This document shows positions 15,930-60,648 of a stretch of DNA of 64,000 bases, piece by piece. Made by a program: the position numbers and the translations under genes. The notes under the pieces are model-generated. The model was not told the DNA's origin. It ran no database searches and worked only from the letters and a program-made list of their open reading frames with translations. The stretch spans positions 533,093 through 597,092 of the forward strand of contig CAVPBC010000002.1 of the NCBI GenBank assembly GCA_963701785.1, written 5' to 3'. Position 1 is the first letter of the stretch. Each line of letters opens with the position of its first letter. The stretch comes from an uncultured Bacteroidales bacterium. GTDB lineage: Bacteria > Bacteroidota > Bacteroidia > Bacteroidales > JAGOPY01.

Positions 15930-17043
15930 TCAACATTCAACATTATCAGTAATTACTCCGCTTCCCAGGCAAATCCTCTTTTCTACATCATACACCACCC
16001 CGAACTGTCCCGGTGCCACACCTGCAATACTTTTCGCAGATTCAATCAAAAATCTCCCTGCCTCCCCGCTTCCCCGCTCCCCCGCTTCCCCGCTCCTTTC
16101 CATCATCGTCCCTTCGTTAAACTCCGGTTGATGGCGGATTTTGAAGAAGACCGGCTGGGGCACCGAATAGTCGCGGTCCGGTGTTTCATTAATGAAGAGA
16201 AAGTCGTCCAGCAAAACTTCTGTTTTATGCTGCGCAACCGGGTCGTAACCATTGGACACATAGACGATATTGGCTGGGATGTCTTTTTTCACCACAAACC
16301 AGGGCCCCTGGCTTAATCCAAGACCTTTGCGCTGCCCGATCGTGTGGAACCAGAAGCCTTTATGTTTACCCAGGATTTTACCTGTTTCAAGTTCGACGAT
16401 ATCCCCTTCTTTTTCACCGGCATAACGCTTGATAAACTCGTTATAATTGATCTTTCCCAGGAAAGCATATACCCTGGCTGTCAGGTCTTGCGGCACTGGG
16501 AAGTTTCAGTTTTTCGGCCAGCTTTCGCACCTCCCCTTTTTCAAACCCGCCTACCGGGAACATGGCCTTTGAAAGCTGGGGGTAAGTGATCCTGCCCAGG
16601 AAATACGTCTGATCTTTGCGCCGGTCTTTTGAAGTGCCAAGGTAATACTGCCCGTTTTGTTCCAGCACCCTGGCATAATGACCTGTGGCGATCTTATCGA
16701 AATCTTTGCCGAATTTATCCTCAAAACTGCCGAATTTAATAAACCGGTTGCACATGACATCAGGATTGGGGGTAAAGCCCTGACGAACCGAATCGATGGT
16801 ATAATTCACAACGCGGTTCCAGTATTCCTCGTGCAGGTTTGCAATTTCGAAACGGCAGCCGTATTTTTTCGCGATGAATGTCGTGATCTCGATATCCTCT
16901 TCCGATGGACAGTCCATAAAGCCGGGCTCATTATCCATCCCGATCTGGATGTAGAAAATGACCGGGTCATACCCCTGTTCTTTCAGCAGGGGAACGATCA
17001 CGGAGCTGTCGACTCCACCGGAAACGAGGGCGGCGATTTGCAT
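15930..17043 (-). pseudogene. mnmA: tRNA 2-thiouridine(34) synthase MnmA, one frame break near 16455-16470
   Basis: ORF 16441-17079 contains MQIAALVSGGVDSSV (PP-loop; true start at 17043) up to DSQGICF. ORF 15930-16496 continues with LGKINYNEFIKRY...APGQFGVVYD. There is an extra base in the TGCTTTCCTGGG context. Confidence 0.9.
16063..16094 (-). repeat. Four 8-bp GCGGGGAR words (read on the minus strand) inside the mnmA coding sequence
   Basis: Plus strand reads CCCCGCTTCCCCGCTCCCCCGCTTCCCCGCTC. It translates in frame as ERSGEAGERGSGEAG. The same word array occurs in inverted orientation at 18185-18216. Confidence 0.85.
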
Positions 17044-17086
17044 TGTGCAAAAGTAGGTAAAATCCGAAAGATCCCTCACTTCGTTC

Positions 17087-21701: not shown

Positions 21702-23013
21702 TTGATAGTCATGATTTCAAAGTTTATCAAGAGCAACAGAAACTTGTACCTGCTCATTGTCATATTCGTACTTCTATTTTCTGGGAAGAACCACGCTCAG
21801 TTCGTCAAAGGGGCCGATATCGGCTGGCTTTCACAAATGGAAGCTACAGGGTACCAGTTTTATGACACCAACAATGTCCAGATGGAATGCCTGGATATCC
21901 TGCAGTCGAGGCAGATCAACACGGTCCGCCTCAGGGTGTGGGTAAATCCCTCGAACGATAAGATCAACGGGCACTGCAGCAAGAAAGAAGTGGCTGAGAT
22001 GGCGTTGCGGGCCAAAAGCAAGGGGATGAGGGTGATGATTGATTTTCATTACAGCGATTCCTGGGCTGACCCGGGAAAGCAAAACAAGCCGGCAGCCTGG
22101 TCTACCCATACTTTCAGCCAGTTGCTGACAGATGTCTACAATCATACTTATGAGGTCCTGGATACCCTGAAGTCCATAGGTGTGACGCCGGAATGGGCCC
22201 AAATCGGCAATGAGATCAGCGGCGGCATGCTTTGGCCCGACGGGAGCACCAACAACTGGCCGAAGCTGGCCCAGTTGCTGAACAAAGGCTACGATGCCGC
22301 GAAAGCGGTCGACAGCACGATCCAGGTTGTAATCCAGATCAATAACGGGCATGATAACAACCTGTTCAGGTGGTTCTTTGACAATGCGGAGAGCAACGGC
22401 GTCAGGTACGATATGATCGGTGCTTCTTATTATCCATACTGGGACGGGCAAGATTATACCGAAACCATTGACGACCTGGGAAACAACCTGAATGATATGG
22501 TCGCACCGATACGGAAAACCGGTTATGGTGGTAGAAACCGGCGGATTGTACAACCAGGTTCAAAACACCTATGATATGCTGCTTGCAGTGATCAAAAAGG
22601 TCCTGGCAGTCCCGGATAAGATGGGCCTTGGCGTGATCTACTGGGAGCCGCAGGGGGAGAAGAGCTGGAGCGGTTATAATTTAAGCTGCTGGAGTTCGGG
22701 AGGCAAGCCCACCAGGGCGCTCAATGCGTTTATGTATGATGTAAGCACAGATGTAAAGGAAAACCCTGACGATCTGCCTTTTCATTTCTATCCGAATCCA
22801 TCTGCAGACGGTGGTTTCAACGTTGATTTAAGAGGATTTGCAGGTACATCTTTCGTAAAAATATATGATCTGACCGGAAAACTGTTAACTGAGCAATCAT
22901 TTGAATACCAGGATGAAGTTACACTGGACCCGAGGTTGAAGCCGGGGATTTACCTGCTGGTCATCACCAACCGGGAGAAGAATTATGTTCAGAAACTGAT
23001 AGTTTCGAGATAA
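21702..23013 (+). pseudogene. GH53 arabinogalactan endo-beta-1,4-galactanase with T9SS sorting domain, one frame break near 22495-22505
   Basis: ORF 21702-22574: FVKGADIGWLSQMEA..NTVRLRVWVNP..IDFHYSDSWADPG..IGNEISGG. ORF 22492-23013: GKPVMVVETGG...YWEPQ, then a CTD (FYPNPSADGGFNV...GIYLLVITN). Confidence 0.85.
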
Positions 23014-34667: not shown

Positions 34668-37082
34668 TTATTGATTGAAATTTCCTGAAAAGGGGATAGA
34701 AATATTCAGAATGAAATTTGTTCCCGGTTCTGGCACATTTAACAGCCTGTAATAGCTGGTGTGATTGTAATATTTATTATTCAGCAGGTTCTGGACCTGC
34801 ATGGAAACACTCATGAACTGATCTTTCATCCTGATGTCGCATCCAAATCCGATGTTAATGACCTGGTAACCTTTCGTGATCTCTTCCGGCGGCACGATAT
34901 TGTTCTGTGTTGCCGTAAGCCTGTAATCGACCGAGAAATATCCATTTCTGAAAAAACCGATCTTTTGCCTCTGGTACTTCAGGTTTATAATGGCCGAGGC
35001 GGGCGGAGAAAAGGGAAGCGTAAAGCCCTCCTTTTCGCCCGAGAGCTGCTCCGAATAAACATATTCGCCGATAAATCCCAGTTGCAGGAACCTAATCACC
35101 TGGTAATGGGAATGGATCTCAATACCGTAGCGGAAAACTTTGGCCTGGGTGTAATAAAACACCTGGTTGCCGCTGCCATAAAGTCTGTCGTATTCCGACG
35201 TGGGATTGAGGTAGATGTAATTCCGGAAATAGTTCACAAAGGGGGTGGCACCGATGGCAAACTTCTCCGACCCGTATTCCACGCCTGCATCAAGCTGGTA
35301 AGATACCTCGGGCGACAGGCCGGCATCGCCCACCTCGTAGCTGAAGGTGTGGTAGTTCACCCCGTTGGCAGCTAGCTCCTTGGCAATGGGCAAGCGGAAA
35401 CTTTTTCCCACATTGGCTTTGTACGACCACTTCCCCGGGTTGTAATTGTACCCGACCGACCACGAAACACTTGAAAAGCCGCGGTTTATCTCACCGGCCC
35501 TTTGCAAATATTCGTAAGTTGTATCGCCGTTATTGATCACCGGTGAAGGGAACCAATCGTAGTATTCCTGCGTTTCCACACTACCGTAATCATAGCGCAG
35601 CGCCGCCTGCAGTATGCTCTTTTCCGTGAAAGCATGCCTGCCCAGCACAAAGCCTCCGATAGTAAACTGCTGAAAAGCAGGAATAATGAAAGCCCGCCCG
35701 TCGATCCGGTTATCCTGGTATTCGCTGTTTACACCCATCACAAAACGGGTCTTTTCGCTTATATCGTAATAAAACTTCAGGTTCAGTGAATAGATATACT
35801 TTTCAAACTGCAGTTCAAGCCCGGGGCTGAAATCCATCGTATCGGGAAACAGCGGAGGCATATAGCCGTGATTGACGTATTCACTCCATTCCTGCCTGAA
35901 ATTCCGCTGGAAACCCAGGTCGGCTTCAATCCTCATCTTCTCAAAATTATACAGGTTCTTGCTGATAAATTTGAAATGATTGATCCGGTGATATGGAAAC
36001 TGGATGTCGCGGTTCGATTTATCGTGCAGGTCTGTATCAACATTGCGTGGTTCCAGGCCATGGGCATTGGCGAAAAAACCGTTTTTGCCGTTCAAATCGC
36101 TGACAAAGAACCGGCTCTGGAATTTGGGCAGGATAAACCCGAAATTAAAATTCAGGCTTTGCTCTTTTCCTGCCGTGTTTCGCATGTGATGTCGGTCAAG
36201 GGCCGCACGGTATGAATAAATATCGATGCTGTCGGCCGGCACCTTGTAATCGCCGTAATCCAGCAGTGTAATGCGAAAATCGGCGAAAAACCGGTTCTTC
36301 CGGCCATACAATGAAACCGAGCCACCCCCGAAATTATTATTGCTCTTATACGAAAGGTCAATACTTCCCCCTATCGTGTTCTCCAAAGGAATGCGGCGGG
36401 TCTTCATGTCGATCACGCCCCCGATGGCATCGGAGCCATACATGATCGAAGCGGGGCCCTTGATCACTTCAATCCGTTCAGCGGCATACTGGTCGATTTC
36501 CAGGCCATGATCGGCTCCCCACTGCTGGCCTTCGTGCTTGATGTCGTTCTCCACAACCAACACACGGTTAAACCCGAGGCCGCGGATAACCGGCTTCGCC
36601 TGCCCGGAGCCAATGTCGATGCTGGTAACCCCCGGCAGGCGCTCGAGTGATTTCATGAGGCTTCCGCCCAGGTTTCGCTTCAGGTATTGGTCGTTGACGA
36701 TTTCGATATTGAGCGGCTCCTCTTTCTTTCGCTCTTCGGCAAAATTATCATTGATGACCACTTCGTGCAAATTAAGCGCATCGACGGAAAGCTGAGCCCG
36801 GTAGCTTTCATTCCCCTGAAGTACAATGGTGTCGAGTAGCGTTTTATACCCCAGGAATGATATTTCGATCCGGTACATGCCCGCGGCAAGCCCGTCAATG
36901 ATAAAATAGCCCCTGTTGTCGGACATGGCGCCTTTTCTTACAGGATAAAGAAAAGCCGCCGCCCCCGGCAAAGCCTGGTTGTTTTCATCGACAACCAAGC
37001 CTGTCAGCGCATAATTGCTTTGTCCGTATAATGAACCGTACATAAGATTTATGCCCAGTAAGAGCACAAAAAATTTTCTCAC
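34668..37082 (-). CDS. TonB-dependent receptor with N-terminal CarboxypepD_reg domain
   Basis: An 804-aa ORF with signal peptide, LTGLVVDENNQALPGAAAFL...GMYRIEISFLGY, a plug (VEVIKGPASIMYGSDAIGGVI) and a C-terminal aromatic beta-barrel end. Confidence 0.9.
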   Translation of the reverse strand: MRKFFVLLLGINLMYGSLYGQSNYALTGLVVDENNQALPGAAAFLYPVRKGAMSDNRGYFIIDGLAAGMYRIEISFLGYKTLLDTIVLQGNESYRAQLSVDALNLHEVVINDNFAEERKKEEPLNIEIVNDQYLKRNLGGSLMKSLERLPGVTSIDIGSGQAKPVIRGLGFNRVLVVENDIKHEGQQWGADHGLEIDQYAAERIEVIKGPASIMYGSDAIGGVIDMKTRRIPLENTIGGSIDLSYKSNNNFGGGSVSLYGRKNRFFADFRITLLDYGDYKVPADSIDIYSYRAALDRHHMRNTAGKEQSLNFNFGFILPKFQSRFFVSDLNGKNGFFANAHGLEPRNVDTDLHDKSNRDIQFPYHRINHFKFISKNLYNFEKMRIEADLGFQRNFRQEWSEYVNHGYMPPLFPDTMDFSPGLELQFEKYIYSLNLKFYYDISEKTRFVMGVNSEYQDNRIDGRAFIIPAFQQFTIGGFVLGRHAFTEKSILQAALRYDYGSVETQEYYDWFPSPVINNGDTTYEYLQRAGEINRGFSSVSWSVGYNYNPGKWSYKANVGKSFRLPIAKELAANGVNYHTFSYEVGDAGLSPEVSYQLDAGVEYGSEKFAIGATPFVNYFRNYIYLNPTSEYDRLYGSGNQVFYYTQAKVFRYGIEIHSHYQVIRFLQLGFIGEYVYSEQLSGEKEGFTLPFSPPASAIINLKYQRQKIGFFRNGYFSVDYRLTATQNNIVPPEEITKGYQVINIGFGCDIRMKDQFMSVSMQVQNLLNNKYYNHTSYYRLLNVPEPGTNFILNISIPFSGNFNQ

Positions 37083-37138: not shown

Positions 37139-37492
37139 TCAGACCGGTGGGGCCCTGGGCAAACTGGTGGTAACTACGTTCCTGAAATAGTTGTTGATTA
37201 AAGTTTCGCTGATGAAACCGGTAACCAGGGGTATAATTTTCTCATAAACCGCCAATTCCGGCAATTGATTTACCGGAAACTGGTAATTACAAACAGGGCA
37301 TTGCTCTTCCTGCTGCTGCCCGGTAATTGAAGTGGTTTGTAAATCCTTATGCTGTAATCCTGTCACACAGGTGTTTTCATGTCCCGAACAACAATCCTTT
37401 TTATGCCCGACCGTATGAACCGATTGGAAGATGACCGGGAACAGAAATATTCCCAGCAAGCTCCAGGTTATATGTTGACTGCGCTTCTTCAA
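37139..37492 (-). CDS. Small membrane protein with His/Cys motifs (HTVGHKKDCCSGHENTC, CPVC)
   Basis: A 117-aa ORF whose start overlaps the Fur-family gene stop by 4 nt. It has one TM helix. I could not confidently name a family. Confidence 0.45.
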   Translation of the reverse strand: MKKRSQHITWSLLGIFLFPVIFQSVHTVGHKKDCCSGHENTCVTGLQHKDLQTTSITGQQQEEQCPVCNYQFPVNQLPELAVYEKIIPLVTGFISETLINNYFRNVVTTSLPRAPPV

Positions 37493-37905
37493 TTGCGCGT
37501 GTGGTTATTTTTACAGTCAGGACAGGTCCCTTTGATCAGGATCTCTTTCTCTGCGATGGTAAAGCCTTCAGGAAGCTGAACATCCTGGACAGGGACAGCA
37601 TCGAGGCAGGTGACAGCGTGACAATTATTGCAGTAGAAATGAGCATGTTCATTTTTATGTGTCACTGAATTATCCAGCGAATATTTACTCAACTGATTAT
37701 CAATGATGATCTTATGGATAATTTTATGTTCTTCCAGCGTTATGAAAGAGCGGTAAAACGTAGTACGGTCGTAATTTCCCGGCAAGCGTTCCCTGATTTC
37801 ATTTTCCGAAAGCGCCCGGCCGGCGTTCATCATCACATCGATGATCCCTTCGCGGCAGCTGGTCCGTTTAAGTTGGCGCGAGTATAAAACTTCAATGGCC
37901 TTCAT
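37489..37905 (-). CDS. Fur-family metalloregulator (Fur/Zur/PerR type)
   Basis: A 138-aa ORF with a winged-helix N-terminus (TSCREGIIDVM...TFYRSFITLEE) and two CxxC pairs (HFYCNNCHAVTC, GTCPDCK). Confidence 0.8.
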   Translation of the reverse strand: MKAIEVLYSRQLKRTSCREGIIDVMMNAGRALSENEIRERLPGNYDRTTFYRSFITLEEHKIIHKIIIDNQLSKYSLDNSVTHKNEHAHFYCNNCHAVTCLDAVPVQDVQLPEGFTIAEKEILIKGTCPDCKNNHTRN

Positions 37906-39511: not shown

Positions 39512-40381
39512 ATGGATTGGTTAAGGAAATATCTATTGCAACGGTATCCTCTTGAAGAAAATGTATGGAAGATCATCATCCCTATTTCTGTTTTTATCGG
39601 GCTTTTCATGGTCGTTTTCCAGCCTTTTGGGCTGAGCAACCTTGATCTCCCGGCCAGGAACTGGCTGTTGGCGGGGTATGGCCTGGTCACCTTTATCATC
39701 CTTATTATTGATCTCTTAATGATCCCCACCCTTTTTCCCTCAGCTTTCAGGGACGAACAGTGGATGATCTGGAAAGAACTACTTTTTCTGCCCTGGATTC
39801 TTTTTACGGTTGGGCTGGGAAACCTTTTATATTCATCCTGGACCCTCGGCTTTCATCTTACCCTGGCAAATATTATTGCTTTTCAAGCTTATACCATAGC
39901 GATAGGTATCATTCCAATTACAGCCCTTACACTGATCAAGCAAAATTACCTGAAGCGTAAAAATGAGGAAAGCGCTGATATTATTTCCGGGAAGATCGTT
40001 TTTCACAAGCCTGAAAAATTCCAGGCCGGGCAAATTCAATTCTTCTCGGATAATGAAAAAGAAAACCTCCGGATAAATGTTAATGAACTGTTGTTTATCA
40101 AATCAGATGGCAATTATATCACCGTTGGGTATCTGAAAAATGGGAAACCGGCCCGGGCCTTGTTTCGCAATACCATGAAATATGCGACAGACCTGCTGGC
40201 GCCCTTTCCCTTTGTTTTTCAATGCCATCGTTCCTGGATGGTTAATCTTCGCAGGATTTCCAGGGTGTCAGGGAATTCCCAGGGGCTTCGCGTAATGCCT
40301 GAGGGCCTTGAAGAAGATATCCCGGTCGCCCGGACCATGACGTCTGCCTTCAGAAAGTTGATGACCGATCATGAGGTCTGA
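39512..40381 (+). CDS. Membrane-tethered LytTR-family DNA-binding protein (no receiver domain)
   Basis: The N-terminal ~150 aa are hydrophobic (about 4-5 TM helices). The C-terminus has LLFIKSDGNYITVGYLKNGKPARALFRNTMKYATDLL..FFQCHRSWMVNLRRI (LytTR domain). Confidence 0.8.
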   Translation: MDWLRKYLLQRYPLEENVWKIIIPISVFIGLFMVVFQPFGLSNLDLPARNWLLAGYGLVTFIILIIDLLMIPTLFPSAFRDEQWMIWKELLFLPWILFTVGLGNLLYSSWTLGFHLTLANIIAFQAYTIAIGIIPITALTLIKQNYLKRKNEESADIISGKIVFHKPEKFQAGQIQFFSDNEKENLRINVNELLFIKSDGNYITVGYLKNGKPARALFRNTMKYATDLLAPFPFVFQCHRSWMVNLRRISRVSGNSQGLRVMPEGLEEDIPVARTMTSAFRKLMTDHEV

Positions 40382-40382
40382 A

Positions 40383-40454
40383 GCCGTTCGTCACTAGAAT
40401 CCTGCCGTTCATCCCAGACTCAGCCATTCGTCACAAAACCTTCCACTTCATCCC
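40383..40454 (+). promoter_or_regulatory. Four phased direct repeats of a CCGTTCGTC-like box (candidate LytTR operator array)
   Basis: GCCGTTCGTCAC (40383), GCCGTTCATCCC (40404), GCCATTCGTCAC (40423), CCACTTCATCCC (40443). Spacing is 21/19/20 bp. The array lies between the LytTR gene stop and the next gene. Confidence 0.55.
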
Positions 40455-40535
40455 AAAACACTTTACAATACTGCTAAACCGCTGTAATATTGCCACATCA
40501 AATTTTTATTCATTAACCTTTTAAAACATAAAAAG

Positions 40536-40851
40536 ATGAAAAATGCAATTATCATTGGTTCGCTGGTTGTACTCGGAGCAGTCGGCCTTATTTTAGGATT
40601 TAGCGGTTATAATGTTGTTGATGCCGGCGATTTTTCGCTCGGTTATTTTTCGGCAGGACAGTTTTCGGCAGGTGTATTTTCCGCCGGCATCTTTCTCTAT
40701 CGGAATTTTTTCGGCCGGTATTTTTAGCGTCGGGATCTTTTCGATCAGCATTTTTAATGTTGGCCTTTTCGCCCTGGGATTTTTTATCCTCGGATGGAAG
40801 AAGAAATATGCCAAGGTTCAGGTTGTTCAGGAAGATATCGAATCAAAGTAA
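40536..40851 (+). pseudogene. Small membrane protein made of eleven G-x-F-S-x pentapeptide repeats; one extra base near 40694 splits the frame
   Basis: ORF 40536-40727 (..GDFSLGYFSAGQFSAGVFSAGIF) and ORF 40612-40851 (..SIGIFSAGIFSVGIFSISIFNVGLFALGFFILGWKKKYAK) join if one C in ATCTTTCTCTATCGG is removed. Confidence 0.6.
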
Positions 40852-41516
40852 GAAATGAATTCTTTAATGGCTTCTTTTGCCTGTCCTGCGGGCCACTCTG
40901 CCCTTGTCCAGTCATCCATTCCGTCTGGTCCTTCAGGCGCTGAATGGATGATTTTCTGATACATTTTACTCCCTTCCGGGCTCAATGCTCCCAGGATTTC
41001 CCTGGCCGCAGCGTGGGCCCGGATTTTTATATCCTCCAGTTCATCTTTGTTGCGGAATAAAAGCATTTTATATACTTCTGAAGTGATGTAACCTGCTTTT
41101 TCCTCATCATTTTTAAAATGCGCAATAGCAGCCGGATTTACTGCAGTCATGAAAACAGATGCCGTAATGAGCTTCCCCGGCATCCGCTCGTCCAGGCGGG
41201 AAACCAATTTCGGCCAGAGTGTGGGATAGATCTCTATCAACAGCAAATCGTGAGTTTTGAGGCCGGCTTCGATCTGATCCAGGTCGAAGGCCTGGAGCAT
41301 ATTTCTTACCGGACCGACCAGGTATTTTTCTTCCGGAAGGGCGGCTATAATTTCCCGTGTCCGGAAAAAGTAATCCCCGCCTTCAATTTCTTCCGGGCGG
41401 GGTGCGCGTGAAGTATAACGGATCACTTTCGGGCAGGTGATGCCGAATAGCGGCAGGGCATTGACCAGCCTGGTCTTGCCTGCGCAGGAATGACCCGAAA
41501 GTCGGAGGAGGAGCAT
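40827..41516 (-). CDS. Guanylate-kinase-fold P-loop protein with atypical motifs
   Basis: GHSCAGKT P-loop and YTSRAPRPEEIEGGDYFF (compare TTRxPRxGExxGxDYxF), plus an unrelated C-terminal extension. Confidence 0.5.
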   Translation of the reverse strand: MLLLRLSGHSCAGKTRLVNALPLFGITCPKVIRYTSRAPRPEEIEGGDYFFRTREIIAALPEEKYLVGPVRNMLQAFDLDQIEAGLKTHDLLLIEIYPTLWPKLVSRLDERMPGKLITASVFMTAVNPAAIAHFKNDEEKAGYITSEVYKMLLFRNKDELEDIKIRAHAAAREILGALSPEGSKMYQKIIHSAPEGPDGMDDWTRAEWPAGQAKEAIKEFISYFDSISS

Positions 41517-42459: not shown

Positions 42460-43654
42460 ATGTACGGAAAAATGAAAGATTGGCTGACGAATGAGCTTAA
42501 AAGCATTGAAGAAGCCGGATTGTATAAAAAAGAACGCATTATCACTTCTCCGCAGGGAGCTGAAATCGGGCTGAATACCGGGGCGGAAGTGCTGAATTTC
42601 TGCGCCAACAATTACCTGGGCCTGTCCAACCACCCCAAGCTGGTGAAGGCTGCAAAAGACACGTTAGATTCCCACGGATTCGGGATGTCGTCGGTCAGGT
42701 TTATATGCGGTACACAGGATATGCACAAAGTCCTCGAGCAAAAGATCGCCGAATATTTCGGAACGGAAGACACGATCCTTTATGCAGCCTGTTTTGATGC
42801 CAATGGCGGCGTTTTTGAGCCCCTGTTCTCAGAAGAGGATGCCATCATCTCCGATTCATTGAACCATGCCTCGATCATCGATGGCGTCCGTCTTTGCAAA
42901 GCCCAGCGCTTCCGCTATAACAATGCCGACATGGCAGACCTGGAAGAAAAACTTAAGGAAGCTTCCAAAACGGCCAGGTTCAAGATCATTGTAACCGACG
43001 GTGTATTCTCCATGGATGGTAACGTTGCCCCGCTGGACAAAATAAATGAGCTGGCCAAGAAATACGATGCCCTGATCATGGTTGACGAGTGCCATTCTGC
43101 CGGTGTTGTAGGCAAAACGGGACGTGGCGTAACCGAATTGTTCAATATCCGCGGGGAGGTTGACATCATCACCGGTACATTAGGAAAGGCATTTGGTGGC
43201 GGTATCGGCGGATTCACTACCGGTAAGAAAGAGATCATCGAACTGCTCAGGCAGCGTTCACGTCCTTACCTGTTCTCCAACTCGCTTATTCCCGCTGCCG
43301 TTGGCGCCGGCATAGCCATGTTCGACATGATGACCGAGACCAACGAGTTGCAGGATAAACTGCACGAAAATACCGACTACTTCCTGGGTAAAATGAAAGC
43401 AGCCGGCTTCGATATCAAGCCCACCAAATCAGCAATCTGCGCGGTAATGCTTTATGATGCAAAGCTTTCGCAAATAATGGCAGAGAAACTTCTGGCTGAA
43501 GGCATTTACGTGATCGGTTTCTACTACCCTGTTGTTGCCAAAGGCCTGGCGCGTATCCGTGTCCAGATCTCGGCAGCCCACGAAAGAGCCCACCTTGACA
43601 AGTGCCATCAATGCATTCATCAAGGTAGGGAAGGAGCTGGAGGTGATTAAGTAA
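42460..43654 (+). pseudogene. kbl: Glycine C-acetyltransferase (2-amino-3-ketobutyrate CoA ligase), one frame break about 50 nt before the end
   Basis: A 396-aa ORF with PLP-enzyme motifs (NYLGLS, DECHSAG, TLGKAFGG). After HLDK the shifted frame reads AINAFIKVGKELEVIK, a typical Kbl C-terminus ending at 43654. Confidence 0.9.
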
Positions 43655-48275: not shown

Positions 48276-51172
48276 ATGCATAAATTGAAATTTTCTGTCG
48301 TTTTCTTTTTTCTGGTATTAACATCCTTCCTGCACGCCCAGATTGGCACAATCAGGGGGACCGTATTCGATGATGCCACGGGGGAATACCTTCCCGGCGT
48401 CACGATATTCCTTGAAGGAACCACTTTGGGAACGCTTACGGACCTGGATGGAAAATTCAACCTGAGCGTTGAACCGGGCAAGTATGACCTGAGGGTTTCT
48501 TTCATTTCTTATGAAACACTCCTTATTAAAAGAACTCGAGGTGAAAGCAGGGGAGGTTTCCCTTTTCGATAATCTCCGGCTGAAAGAAACGACTTTTGAA
48601 CTCAGCGAGGTTGTTATCAAAGCCCAGGAAGTGCGGAATACGGAAAATGCACTGATCACCATAAAAAGGAAATCCGCAAATGTAATTGACGGCATTTCGT
48701 CAGTAAGTTTCAGGAAAATAGGGGATTCTGATGCTGCTTCTTCCATGAAGCGGGTCCCGGGTGTATCGGTAGAAGGGGGAAAATATGTATATGTCCGAGG
48801 TCTGGGTGACCGCTACACGAAAACTATCCTGAACGGGGTCGATATCCCCGGTCTTGACCCCGACCGGAATACTTTGCAGATGGACATATTCCCCACAAAT
48901 ATCATAGATAATATAATAGTCCACAAATCGTTTACAGCCGATCTCCCTGCAGATTTTACCGGAGGGGTCATCGATATCGCCATCAAAGATTTTCCGGAGG
49001 AAAAAAAAGGAAATATCTCCCTGACTGCCGGGTATAATCCTGGTTTTCACTTTAAAAATAATTACCTGGATTATGATGGAGGAAATACTGATTTTCTTGG
49101 TTTTGATGACGGCACGAGGGAAATCCCGGCCACGACCGATATTCCTTTCTTTTCCGAGGTTGTCGGCGACCCTGACGGGGAACAAGGCCAGCGATACCAG
49201 GAGATACTGAAAAATTTCAATCCCACCATGGCAGCTTACCAGAAAATGAGTTTCATGGATTACAGCATTGGTGCATCCCTGGGTAACCAGATAGCAGTTA
49301 AGAAAGTTACCCTGGGGTATAATTTTGCCCTTTCCTATAAGAGCAATACGGAGTTTTATGAGGATGCAGAGTATGGTCGTTATGGCCTTTCTGGAGATCC
49401 TGATGTCTATGAAATGGATGTCCGCGAATTCCAGAAAGGCGACTACGGCGTAAGCAGCGTATTATTGAGCGGGATGGCAGGATTCGCTATAAAGACACTT
49501 GGTTCAAAATACCGGATTAACATTATGCACCTGCAGAACGGTGAATCAAAAGCAGGTATTTTCGATTATATTGGTTCAGACCAGGGTAGTAACTTCGAAG
49601 CTTTTCAACATAACCTCGATTACAGTGAACGCTCGCTGACCAATTTACTTATCAGCGGTAAACACACATTCAGCGGCCCGAAATGGGATATCGAATGGAA
49701 ACTATCGCCCACTTTATCAAAAATGGAAGATCCGGATATAAGATTTACGAGGTATGTGATCTCCGAGGGTAACTTTGTAATCGGCACAGAATCAGGATTT
49801 CCCGAAAGGATATGGCGGGACCTGGAAGAAGTTAACCTTGCCGGGCTCATTGCACATCACCAAAGAATTCGAAGTGAGGGGACAAAATGCAAAACTGCAG
49901 TTTGGCGGGGCCTATACATTTAAGGAGCGTGATTTTGCCATCCGCAGCTATGCCCTCAATATCCGTAATGTGCCACTTACAGGCGACCCTGATGAACTCT
50001 TCTATCCGGAAAATCTCTGGCCGCTCGACGGAAATATTAACAATGGCACGACATATGAAGCGCCATTTGTCCCGGTTAACCCTAACCAGTTTAATTCCAG
50101 CACCAATAATGCGGCAGGTTATGTTTCGGTGGAACTCAGTCCTTTCAGGAACCTTAAGACCATACTCGGTATTCGTGTTGAGAACTATGTGCAGTATTAT
50201 ACCGGGCAGGACCAGCTTGGGTACAATATCCTCGATAATGAAAAGGTGCTTGACAATACGGATTTTTTCCCTTCGGTTAATTTCATCTACAACCTGTCGG
50301 AGAAGCAAAACCTTCGATTGTCTTATGCTAAAACTATTGCAAGGCCTTCCTTCAAGGAATTATCCTATGCTGAGATTTACGATCCGATCAGCGGCCGCAC
50401 CTTCATCGGCGGTTTGTTCCGCGATGCCGACGATGTGGCCGGTATTGAATACTGGGACGGAAACCTGGTAATTACGGATATTCACAACTTCGACCTTCGC
50501 TGGGAGTTGTTCCCCTCGGGTGGCCAAACAATTTCTGTCAGTGGATTTTATAAGATATTCAATAACCCGATTGAAATGGTGCAGTATGCTACCCTGGCCG
50601 GCTCTTTTCAGCCGCGTAACGTGGGAGATGGCCAGGTCTTCGGCACGGAGATCGAATTTCGTCTAAACCTTGAGCCTGTTATCGAGTCCCTCAGGAATAT
50701 GTCCATTTCTTCGAACCTTACCTTTGCCAAATCACTAATCAAGTTAAGTAATACGGAATATCAATCCCGGGTAGAAAATGCACGCACCGGGCAAACTATT
50801 GACGAATACCGAAACATGGCTGGCCAGGCACCGTTCATTATCAATTTCGGCGTCTCTTACAATGGGGGAGTAAAAGGATTCTGGAACGGTTTTGAAGCCG
50901 GGCTTTATTATAATGTCCAGGGGCAAACGCTTCAATATGTCGGAATGGTTGACCGTCCTGACATTTATTCCAAACCTTTCAACAGTTTAAACTTTAACAG
51001 CAATAAAAGCCTTGGAGAGAATAAGCGCCTGCAGATAGGCCTGAAGATCGAAAATCTCCTGAACGATACGAAGGAAGCCGTATTTAAATCCTATGACGCT
51101 AATGATCAATATTTTACACGTTTGTACCAGGGGGTTACTTTCCAGTTAAGATTAAGCTATTCATTTTTCTGA
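48276..51172 (+). pseudogene. TonB-dependent receptor (CarboxypepD_reg N-terminus), two frame breaks (about 48525 and 49850)
   Basis: MHKLKFSVVFFFLVLTSFLHAQ, GTIRGTVFDDATGEYLPGVTIFLEGT, a plug (VSVEGGKYVYVRGLGDRYT) and a barrel ending ..FQLRLSYSFF. Three consecutive ORFs are involved. Confidence 0.85.
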
Positions 51173-59726: not shown

Positions 59727-60648
59727 TTATGAAATATCAACATTTGCAAACGTCCTCCTGATCCCATGGCGGAACTTAACTTTCGGGTAACCCACGATCA
59801 GGAATAATCCTTCTTTGCTTTTAAACTTTATCCCGTGATTTTTCCTGAATTTTTCGGCTGCTTTGCCGGATTGTATGAAGGGATGGATGGCCCCGAGCAT
59901 GCAGGTGCCCAATCCGAGCGATTCGGCGGCGTGCATGGCGTAAGTGCAGGCAATGATCGGATCGGCCGGATCGGTGTAGGGCGATCCATAGAAATAGAAG
60001 GCCAGCGGGGCATCGTACATCACGATGTTTCTACCTTCTTTCATGTAACCGGTATAAGAGTTGATCACAGGTTTGATGAAATCCCGGAACATATCGCCAT
60101 TCTCCTTTCCGTAAAATAACCGCATAAAAATCAAACCGGGCGGGGATACCATCCATTTCAGCCTTTCGATGTAATCGCAATAGTCTTTGGAGAACTGAAA
60201 CACTTTTTCTTTCCCGTTCAATACCAGGACATTGACATCTGATGGCGGGATTCCCATAGGAGCCGTGACTGCTGCCTGCGAGGATCTTTTCGATCAGTTC
60301 CTGTTCTACCGGTTTGTCTTTGTAATCGCGGATGCTTCGACGGCGCTGGTAAAGCTTTAATAATGAATCATAGGAAGCTATTTCTGATTTATCAGCCAGT
60401 GGGAAGATATCATCCGGTGACAGGCACCTGCCGTTGACGCTAATAGCGCCTTCAGGACATACGGCCATGCATTGTCCGCAGCCAATGCAGCCGAAAAGAG
60501 AATTCTTATGGGTGGCGACAGCTTTACCGTCGATCAGTTCAAAGACGGAATCAGAACAAACTTCGACACACAGGCCGCAGCCGTTGCATTTTTCGTGGTC
60601 GACCGTGACATGGCCGGCTTCATGGGTTCTTGAGGTTGGGATTGGCAT
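59727..60648 (-). pseudogene. 2x[4Fe-4S] ferredoxin domain fused to a nitroreductase-family domain, one frame break near 60280
   Basis: CNGCGLCVEVC and CIGCGQCMAVCPEGA, then YQRRRSIRDYKDKPVEQELIEKILA. The shifted frame continues AAVTAPMGIPPSDVNVLVL...GLGTCMLG. Confidence 0.75.

Follow-up and report, generated by a model that had tools for sequence, protein, structure and literature searches.

Positions 39,512 to 40,851 of a 64,000-nucleotide (nt) stretch of DNA from an uncultured Bacteroidales bacterium (contig CAVPBC010000002.1; the whole stretch is called the window below) carry a compact two-gene module, in which the gene of a membrane-tethered LytTR regulator is followed by an array of four direct repeats (boxes), a Bacteroidetes-type promoter and the gene of a small membrane protein built of five-residue repeats. 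The module is a real, conserved regulatory unit, and the window copy is unusual only in a probable sequencing error in the target gene. The domain make-up of the regulator, the boxes with their phasing and constant spacing from the promoter, and the conservation of the gene pair are observed directly, and it is probable, judging from sequence, that the adjacent membrane-tethered regulator activates the promoter of the small gene via the boxes. The features of the module are the following, with positions counted along the window.

39512-40381, forward strand: gene of the membrane-tethered LytTR regulator, an ATG open reading frame (ORF) of 289 amino acids (aa) with a TGA stop at 40379-40381
39512-39994, forward strand: N-terminal membrane domain of the regulator, residues 1-161, modelled by AlphaFold as four transmembrane (TM) helices followed by a cytoplasmic linker helix
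40031-40369, forward strand: C-terminal LytTR DNA-binding domain of the regulator, residues 174-286, assigned by PF04397, PDB profile matches and Foldseek
40383-40394, forward strand: box 1 (distal), GCCGTTCGTCAC, matrix score 17.0, containing the AlgR core CCGTTCGTC
40404-40415, forward strand: box 2, GCCGTTCATCCC, matrix score 17.8
40423-40434, forward strand: box 3, GCCATTCGTCAC, followed by AAAAC, matrix score 16.6
40443-40454, forward strand: box 4 (promoter-proximal), CCACTTCATCCC, followed by AAAAC, matrix score 9.7
40462-40467, forward strand: -33/-35-like element TTTACA, 7 nt past box 4, found in a consensus scan (TTTACA, 17-nt spacer, TAATAT)
40485-40492, forward strand: Bacteroidetes-type -7 element TAATATTG (consensus TAnnTTTG), with the end of box 4 lying 30 nt upstream
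40536-40851, forward strand: small membrane-protein gene, coding for 11 G-x-F-S-x pentads between an N-terminal and a C-terminal TM helix, with a basic tail
40691, forward strand: extra C (or an equivalent 1-nt insertion within 40690-40697), seen by comparison with the related loci L161 and L163 and by two-frame tblastn

Box array and promoter

The array begins one base past the TGA stop of the regulator gene and consists of four 12-base-pair (bp) direct repeats. The original prediction had placed them at 40383, 40404, 40423 and 40443 with start spacings of 21, 19 and 20 bp, and both the sequence and a repeat finder bear this out; the latter joined boxes 1-3 as one family (21 and 19 bp) and linked boxes 3 and 4 via TTCRTCMCAAAAC at 20 bp. 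The pattern CCRYTCRTCMC occurs three times in the 64 kb, always within the array, against 0.48 expected, and three occurrences were reached in none of 100 shuffles. A looser box search allowing two mismatches gave four matches in the window against 2.3 expected, which alone is not significant. When a weight matrix derived from relatives was run along both strands of the window, the array at 40383 was the sole phased one with at least three boxes. Chance repeats were rejected on the grounds of pattern count and shuffles, the matrix scan of relatives and the uniqueness of the array. An RNA element in the spacer was rejected as well, as no Rfam family matched there (best E = 0.47, 15 bits against a threshold of 54) and no RNA structure rose above shuffled controls (z = 0.06); no inverted repeats were seen over the boxes.

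Relatives of the regulator were collected in a word-indexed search (236), in a pattern scan of one genome per species (at least 449 loci, nearly all of them from Bacteroidota) and in a metagenome scan (287). The loci analysed numbered 164 (single ones are cited by L numbers), and 147 had enough downstream sequence for synteny. In 66 of these 147 the next gene downstream, on the same strand, codes for a repeat protein of 96-121 aa, with an N-terminal TM helix and G-x-F-[SA]-x repeats in every case; the pairing persists down to about 32% regulator identity. The reverse look-up, starting from four small proteins, found the gene of a 287-291-aa LytTR protein 150-185 nt upstream in three, at loci whose flanking genes differ; in the fourth, beside Cas12a, there is no adjacent regulator gene. 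No conserved second gene follows the small gene at these loci; there are single cases only, an S33 hydrolase (L091) and DUF2141 (L165-167).

The box matrix was refined on 64 non-identical upstream regions and yielded the 12-mer GC[AC]nTT[CT][AG]TC[AC]C from 215 sites. Each region holds 3.4 boxes on average, while 0.09 are expected from the same matrix per 230 nt of the remaining locus sequence; three boxes are present in 22 of the 64 regions and four in 31. Most gaps between boxes (126 of 152) measure 19-22 bp, 88 of them exactly 20 bp, and most others are close to 40 bp, corresponding to one weak box skipped. Phased arrays of at least three boxes stand within 400 nt past the regulator stop in 81 loci, against nine elsewhere in 876 kb on both strands. 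The promoter region directly upstream of the regulator gene has no phased array, either in the window or in the 164 loci. Both checks proposed with the original prediction, namely synteny of regulator and repeat protein and conservation of the boxes in related genomes, have therefore come out in its favour.

A promoter-like site, TTTACA-17 nt-TAATAT(TG), spans 40462-40492, with the ATG of the small gene at 40536. Transcription would start near 40498, and relative to such a start the boxes cover about -115 to -43. The -7-like element that had been noted between the array and the target ATG was located at 40485-40492 as TAATATTG; the stretch from the end of the array to the ATG, put earlier at about 85 bp, measures 81 nt. 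A -7 element TAnnTTTG and a TTTG at -33 have been described for Bacteroidetes promoters (Bayley et al. 2000, as cited in PMC6193735). The -33/-35 element of the window is off-consensus, having TTTACA, i.e. TTTA in place of TTTG. TAnnnTTG is present in 52 of the 63 relatives' regions, and in 47 of these 52 it follows the end of the last box by 29 nt (40 cases) or 30 nt (7 cases). In an alignment anchored at the -7 element the boxes, a TTTTG or CTT[TG]AC just past box 4 and the -7 element itself are conserved and the spacers are variable; the same conservation of boxes and promoter with drifting spacers is found among the nine closest relatives. In the alignment of nine relatives TTCGTC of box 1, CCAT.C.TC of box 3 and TA.TATT of the -7 element are invariant, and CTT[TG]AC of the -33/-35 region is conserved in relatives.

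The boxes are not equivalent. Across relatives the two distal boxes are weaker and more variable, the position of box 2 being the least conserved; in the proximal pair CCC is the ending of the promoter-side box (45 of 48 relatives) and CAC that of its neighbour (44 of 48). In the window the endings run CAC-CCC-CAC-CCC, from which a duplicated two-box unit of about 40 bp had been supposed. This duplication is unsupported, because the two halves share 21 of 40 bases, mostly in the boxes, and because the usual order in relatives, CCC-CAC-CAC-CCC, does not alternate. The identity of box 1 with the AlgR core was stated correctly, since box 1 contains the published core CCGTTCGTC (PMC4064291).

Several loci depart from the common layout. 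In L173 and L174 (1900-2810) the small gene comes directly after a Cas12a gene and its CRISPR array, with boxes, a -33 element TTTTTG and a -7 element TATCATTG present and no LytTR gene adjacent to the small gene. The module appears to be split there, and the regulator may act from elsewhere; because the boxes are kept in L173 without an adjacent regulator gene, they belong to the promoter of the small gene. In L170-L172 (1-2830) the module lies about 700 nt downstream of a pair consisting of a histidine kinase and a receiver-LytTR protein, so that two LytTR proteins are encoded side by side. Locus L014 has a second four-box phased array on the same strand, about 2.4 kb upstream of the regulator stop, which may belong to a neighbouring paralogous module. 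In L162 (3860-4040) the coding sequence of the small gene is almost wholly deleted and the promoter runs into the last 40 or so nt of the gene, and only decayed forms of boxes 2 and 3 are left (GCTTTTATACTG and ..GTCAA).

The regulator and its paralogues

The ORF at 39512-40381 on the forward strand does encode, as had been predicted, 289 aa with a C-terminal LytTR domain and no receiver, which is borne out by the ORF call and Pfam. Its homologues align from the same start Met in the family alignment, and an identical protein (P0001) is recorded on a 2.89-Mb public contig. LytTR (PF04397) is the sole Pfam domain of the regulator (residues 186-284, E = 3.1e-11, 43.8 bits against a cut-off of 22.6). 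The Pfam scan gave no match to a receiver (Response_reg) domain, and the protein does not belong to the response regulators of the AlgR/AgrA/LytR type; likewise there was no Pfam match to MHYT (PF03707) even at E ≤ 10, and the protein stands outside the CoxC subfamily. A profile of the regulator family matched 3d6w at 1.7e-7 and ComE at 2.3e-4 in the PDB. The AlphaFold model, made from a 27-sequence alignment, has a mean predicted local distance difference test score (pLDDT) of 84.7 and a value of about 90 in the LytTR domain. When the model was submitted to Foldseek, target-normalised template modelling scores of 0.77-0.82 were obtained with the isolated 3d6w and AgrA domains (root-mean-square deviation 2.3-3.4 Å) and of 0.36 with full-length ComE. 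As modelled, the regulator has the LytTR beta fold.

The original prediction had counted about five TM helices, while the AlphaFold model gives four, at residues 19-36, 49-74, 86-112 and 118 to about 143, the fourth being prolonged up to residue 161 by a linker helix. On the outer side of the membrane domain the predicted loops comprise only some 5-12 residues. Residues F36, Q37, P38, G40, G57, T60, G101, N104, Y107, T128, G132 and P135 are invariant in the family alignment, and an FQPFG motif is kept. No Pfam family matched the N-terminal 165 residues. Used alone as a query, the membrane domain matched 1399 cluster representatives (clusters at 50% identity) at E ≤ 0.001 and 640 at E ≤ 1e-10. 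Among the matches listed most are about 282-300 aa long, and for this reason the domain is taken to occur essentially only in fusion with LytTR. The fusion of the TM domain to the N-terminal side of LytTR in one polypeptide places the protein among the membrane-bound single-component LytTR regulators, and the earlier label of a one-component membrane regulator fits the modelled four-TM bundle and LytTR fold without a receiver.

Paralogous regulators are followed by other genes, coding for TonB/Plug outer-membrane proteins, S33 alpha/beta hydrolases, DUF2306 membrane proteins, PAF-acetylhydrolase-like lipases and enzymes of the choloylglycine-hydrolase family. In 12 of 13 TonB/Plug loci, all six S33 loci and 5 of 12 DUF2306 loci the gene has four boxes in front of it, as a rule together with the 29-nt gap and a -7 element. 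Because the same design of boxes and promoter stands before other envelope genes beside paralogues, the downstream gene is regarded as the regulated output. A paralogous regulator is also carried by human-gut Bacteroides (L049, L052, L127-L134 and L148-L151), including the isolate B. hominis CLA-AA-H207 (L052); at these loci four boxes, a 29-nt gap and TATGTTTG are followed by the gene of a 647-aa TonB/Plug-like outer-membrane protein, and the carriers are experimentally tractable. Among carriers with the repeat protein as target, Plebeiibacterium sediminum AAT (L047) is available in culture. In one clade (L004, L006, L016, L020, L088 and L104) the gene directly after the four-box array codes for a secreted S33 alpha/beta hydrolase. 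At L091 the order is regulator, boxes, repeat protein and S33 hydrolase, the last being 69% identical to the hydrolase of that clade. The sequences suggest that the S33 clade may have lost the repeat-protein gene from a two-gene target operon.

The small protein and its frameshift

The small protein matched no Pfam or NCBIfam family. Its only Pfam matches are compositional, to the GLTT repeat and to Pentapeptide_2 (19-23 bits, below the cut-off of 26.4), and neither by this model nor by the consensus A[D/N]LXX does it belong to the pentapeptide-repeat proteins. Its homologues are named in databases as hypothetical or, by an evident mis-call, as SugE, and a literature search on the repeat sequence found nothing. 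Over 66 small-protein sequences Gly and Phe recur invariably every five residues, and Ser almost invariably. The AlphaFold model (mean pLDDT 83.6) consists of a helix at 2-22, beta structure at 28-74 across the repeats and a helix at 75-88; Foldseek found no match for it in the PDB, the best E being 4 and the weak matches being other beta-helices. A strict period of five over 9-11 repeats seems unfit for a conserved helix face and would fit a beta-solenoid of the pentapeptide type.

Pentapeptide-repeat proteins form a right-handed four-sided beta-helix with the consensus A[D/N]LXX. The small protein resembles them in its strict five-residue period, in the number of repeats (9-11), in Gly at i-2 and a central Phe, and in a model that is all-beta across the repeats. 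It differs from them in that the outward positions are hydrophobic (Ile, Val, Ala) and not polar, and in that the repeat is set between two TM helices. Judging by its basic N-terminus and KKKY tail, the protein may have both ends in the cytoplasm, and it presumably acts in the cell envelope.

In the window the small gene is split by a +1 frameshift into ORFs at 40536-40727 (63 aa) and 40612-40851 (79 aa). The claim of a membrane protein gene with (G-x-F-S-x)11 holds for the repeats, since the product has 11 G-x-F-S-x pentads once the extra base is removed, and fails for the frame, which is not a single open one. The reference genes, intact and coding for 103 aa, were those of L161 (regulator 86% identical) and L163 (72%); at the site itself the window has GGCATCTTTC where L161 has GGCATTTTC. 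The same break is found in the public assembly, where a 63-aa protein (P0225) is recorded on the same contig as the regulator.

Other genes of the window are split by frameshifts too, namely mnmA (between its HUP and barrel domains), a GH53 glycosidase gene, kbl (with an extra C near 43605) and a TonB-dependent receptor (Plug against barrel), and a Fer4-nitroreductase gene is possibly split as well. The spans of the split genes are 15933-17079 and 59730-60648 on the reverse strand and 21702-23010, 42460-43654 and 48511-51169 on the forward strand. This suggests about one indel error per 10 kb in the assembly. For the frameshift of the small gene an assembly error is the likeliest cause, since at least four other genes of the window are split, including the housekeeping gene mnmA; a real mutation is less likely. 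Pseudogene status was judged unlikely, as mnmA, kbl, GH53 and the TonB receptor gene are also split. A programmed +1 frameshift at UUU_C, which would restore G-I-F-S-I-G, was rejected because at least 66 homologues are in frame.

A gene on the reverse strand (40827-41516) is convergent with the small gene, whose last 25 nt it overlaps. It codes for a 229-aa P-loop protein with a weak guanylate-kinase match and is kept in the closest relatives (L161-L164), not beyond. Further away, at 37139-37905 and 34668-37082 on the reverse strand, genes of a 138-aa CxxC...CxxC protein and of a Cys/His-rich membrane protein of 117 aa precede a TonB-dependent-receptor-like ORF of 804 aa; the 138-aa protein may be a Fur-family regulator, and the locus looks like an unrelated metal-uptake cluster.

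Proposed regulation and related LytTR systems

From these features we infer how the regulator binds the boxes and activates, in which oligomeric state it does so, and what the signal and the function of the small protein may be. In the proposed two-gene unit the first gene would encode a one-component transcription factor kept in the inner membrane. Its sensor would be the four TM helices, which have almost no periplasmic loops, and a long helix would link this sensor to the cytoplasmic LytTR domain. LytTR domains, probably as two dimers, would bind the four direct repeats, all of which should lie on one face of the DNA because they are spaced by two helical turns; the proximal pair (..CAC, ..CCC) may serve as the core dimer site and the distal pair as an auxiliary one. 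The bound regulator would most likely recruit RNA polymerase from upstream of the -33/-35 element and so activate the promoter. The target would be a protein of about 103 aa, with two TM helices around 11 highly hydrophobic repeats of predicted beta structure. As there is no periplasmic domain, the signal would most likely be sensed within the membrane, candidates being a lipophilic compound or a change in membrane state. The envelope targets of the family, several of them lipid- or amide-hydrolase-like, hint in the same direction, which is speculation.

The box period of 19-21 bp speaks for this proposal, as it agrees with the published spacing of LytTR sites, which are direct repeats of about 9 bp placed 11-13 bp apart (PMC6193735; PMC11347149). 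Repeats of LytTR activators lie 4-11 bp upstream of -35 (PMC6193735), and activation is favoured here because the boxes are wholly upstream, with 7 nt between the end of box 4 and an off-consensus -33/-35 element. Several points weigh on the other side. Box 4 is the weakest match in the window (9.7 against 16.6-17.8 for the others), although its position is nevertheless the best conserved one across relatives, and 20 of the 66 repeat-protein loci fail a strict test for three consecutive phased boxes. In the window the target gene has a frameshift, and L162 (regulator 74% identical) has lost the small gene and kept an intact regulator, for which reasons the regulator may have other targets beyond the 64-kb window. 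No terminator is predicted between the regulator gene and the small gene, so that basal read-through is likely, and the small gene may also be expressed in this way. Finally, a literature search found no transcription-start, binding or expression data for any member of the family.

The opposite sign of regulation has a precedent. CoxC, a characterised membrane-bound LytTR regulator, is a repressor acting on three direct repeats (PMC11347149), and by analogy the regulator could sit on the array at rest, block or loop the promoter, and be released on a signal; that box 4 ends just 7 nt from the -33/-35 element would suit such a role. Repression is nonetheless improbable, because the boxes lie wholly upstream of the core promoter (about -115 to -43) whereas the CoxC operator overlaps -35, because an off-consensus -33/-35 element suits an activator-dependent promoter, and because LytTR repeats at 4-11 bp from -35 are the activator arrangement. 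It is even harder to believe, and only a slight chance is given to it, that the repeats serve something else, such as another factor (e.g. a LytTR response regulator), an RNA element or the remnant of a repeat expansion. The kinase and receiver-LytTR pair near the module in L170 and the boxes of L173, which have no adjacent regulator gene, could be read in this way, but the arrays co-occur with this regulator family (the 81 beside the gene against nine elsewhere), there is no Rfam match, no structure beyond shuffled controls and no inverted repeat over the boxes, and the fixed distance of 29-30 nt to the -7 element is a property of a promoter and not of an RNA.

Another explanation, which is compatible with activation through the boxes, concerns the small protein. 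It might be a partner that binds the four-TM domain of the regulator and damps or tunes it in a feedback, like HdrM and BrsM. In LytTR regulatory systems the gene of a membrane inhibitor lies directly downstream of the LytTR gene (PMC6193735; PMC13384398), and the pairing of regulator and small gene is tight in both directions while the neighbouring genes are not conserved. We consider such a feedback possible yet rather unlikely: paralogues of the same design are followed by secreted hydrolases, a TonB/Plug protein or DUF2306, not all of which can be intramembrane inhibitors, there is no array upstream of the regulator gene and hence the defining positive autoregulation is absent, the small protein resembles neither DUF2154 nor any other known family of inhibitors, and L162 retains its regulator in the absence of the small gene.

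Membrane one-component LytTR regulators are already known (CoxC, HigX), having been characterised only recently; the present family differs from them in the sensor domain, the four-box array between regulator and target, the lack of an autoregulatory site and the target protein. A literature search found no paper on this Bacteroidota regulator family or on the repeat protein. CoxC of Afipia carboxidovorans (PMC11347149, 2024) is likewise a membrane-bound single-component regulator, whose isolated LytTR domain binds three direct repeats at the target promoter. Its sensor is a 7-TM MHYT domain with three MHYT motifs, which uses copper and senses carbon monoxide (CO), in contrast to the four modelled TM helices without MHYT described here; and it represses from three 8-bp repeats over -35, whereas here four 12-bp boxes stand upstream of -33/-35 and activation is likely.

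HigX of Caulobacter crescentus (PMC13384398, 2026) is like the present regulator in topology: four N-terminal TM helices, predicted to pack into a tight bundle and lacking a periplasmic domain, are joined by a linker to a LytTR domain at the C-terminus. HigX is described as active in its full-length membrane form, and its reported regulon covers envelope functions. Unlike the present regulator, HigX is alphaproteobacterial, is encoded downstream of the higBA toxin-antitoxin pair and is under SOS control, and the accessible text describes no adjacent four-box array or dedicated downstream target.

The HdrRM/BrsRM systems (PMC6193735, 2018) likewise have adjacent genes of a LytTR protein and a membrane protein, and repeats with a period of about 21-22 bp just upstream of the promoter. 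Their regulator, however, is a soluble single-domain protein, whereas the one described here carries its own four-TM domain; their repeats precede the whole operon and confer positive autoregulation, whereas the present array lies between two genes; and their membrane protein inhibits the regulator, while the adjacent membrane protein here is unrelated to known inhibitor families. Zou et al. (2018) described, from sequence only, 'LRS-like' (LytTR regulatory system-like) operons of Bacteroides with TM-containing LytTR regulators in B. thetaiotaomicron and B. ovatus, where two 11-bp repeats lie 11 bp upstream of a TGTA-19 bp-TATCTTTG promoter (PMC6193735). In those operons the membrane protein (NfeD + DUF2154) is encoded upstream, in contrast to the unrelated repeat protein encoded downstream here, and the present module further differs from LytTR regulatory systems in having four boxes and a different motif. 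With AlgR, AgrA and ComE the regulator shares the LytTR fold and, in its putative sites, direct repeats about two helical turns apart and upstream of the promoter; these three have a phospho-receiver and a partner kinase, and here the membrane domain replaces the receiver.

Membrane-tethered transcription factors are unusually common in Bacteroidota (PMC10269533), and it is poorly understood how they sense signals and find their DNA. A bolder idea, to which only tentative weight is given, is that the small protein forms a hydrophobic beta-solenoid between TM helices in or on the inner membrane, and that the operator is kept near the regulator stop so that co-translational insertion delivers the protein to the site. 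Were this true, the family would illustrate a general way for a membrane-tethered transcription factor to find its DNA, and the small protein would represent a novel type of membrane protein with a fold absent among solved structures. The repeat protein may in any case have an unusual fold.

The family is large, with 1399 clusters of the TM domain and at least 449 species representatives, and includes human-gut Bacteroides. Since the design is simple and rigid (regulator, four boxes, a gap of 29-30 nt, a -7 element and one target), the sequence alone reveals operator, promoter and target, and the family is convenient for the study of intramembrane sensing, of LytTR assembly on four sites and of activation at Bacteroidetes-type promoters. 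Once the signal is identified, the compact modular promoter could be used as an inducible expression part for Bacteroidota. As all the targets are envelope proteins, the finding points to a widespread envelope or lipid-related response.

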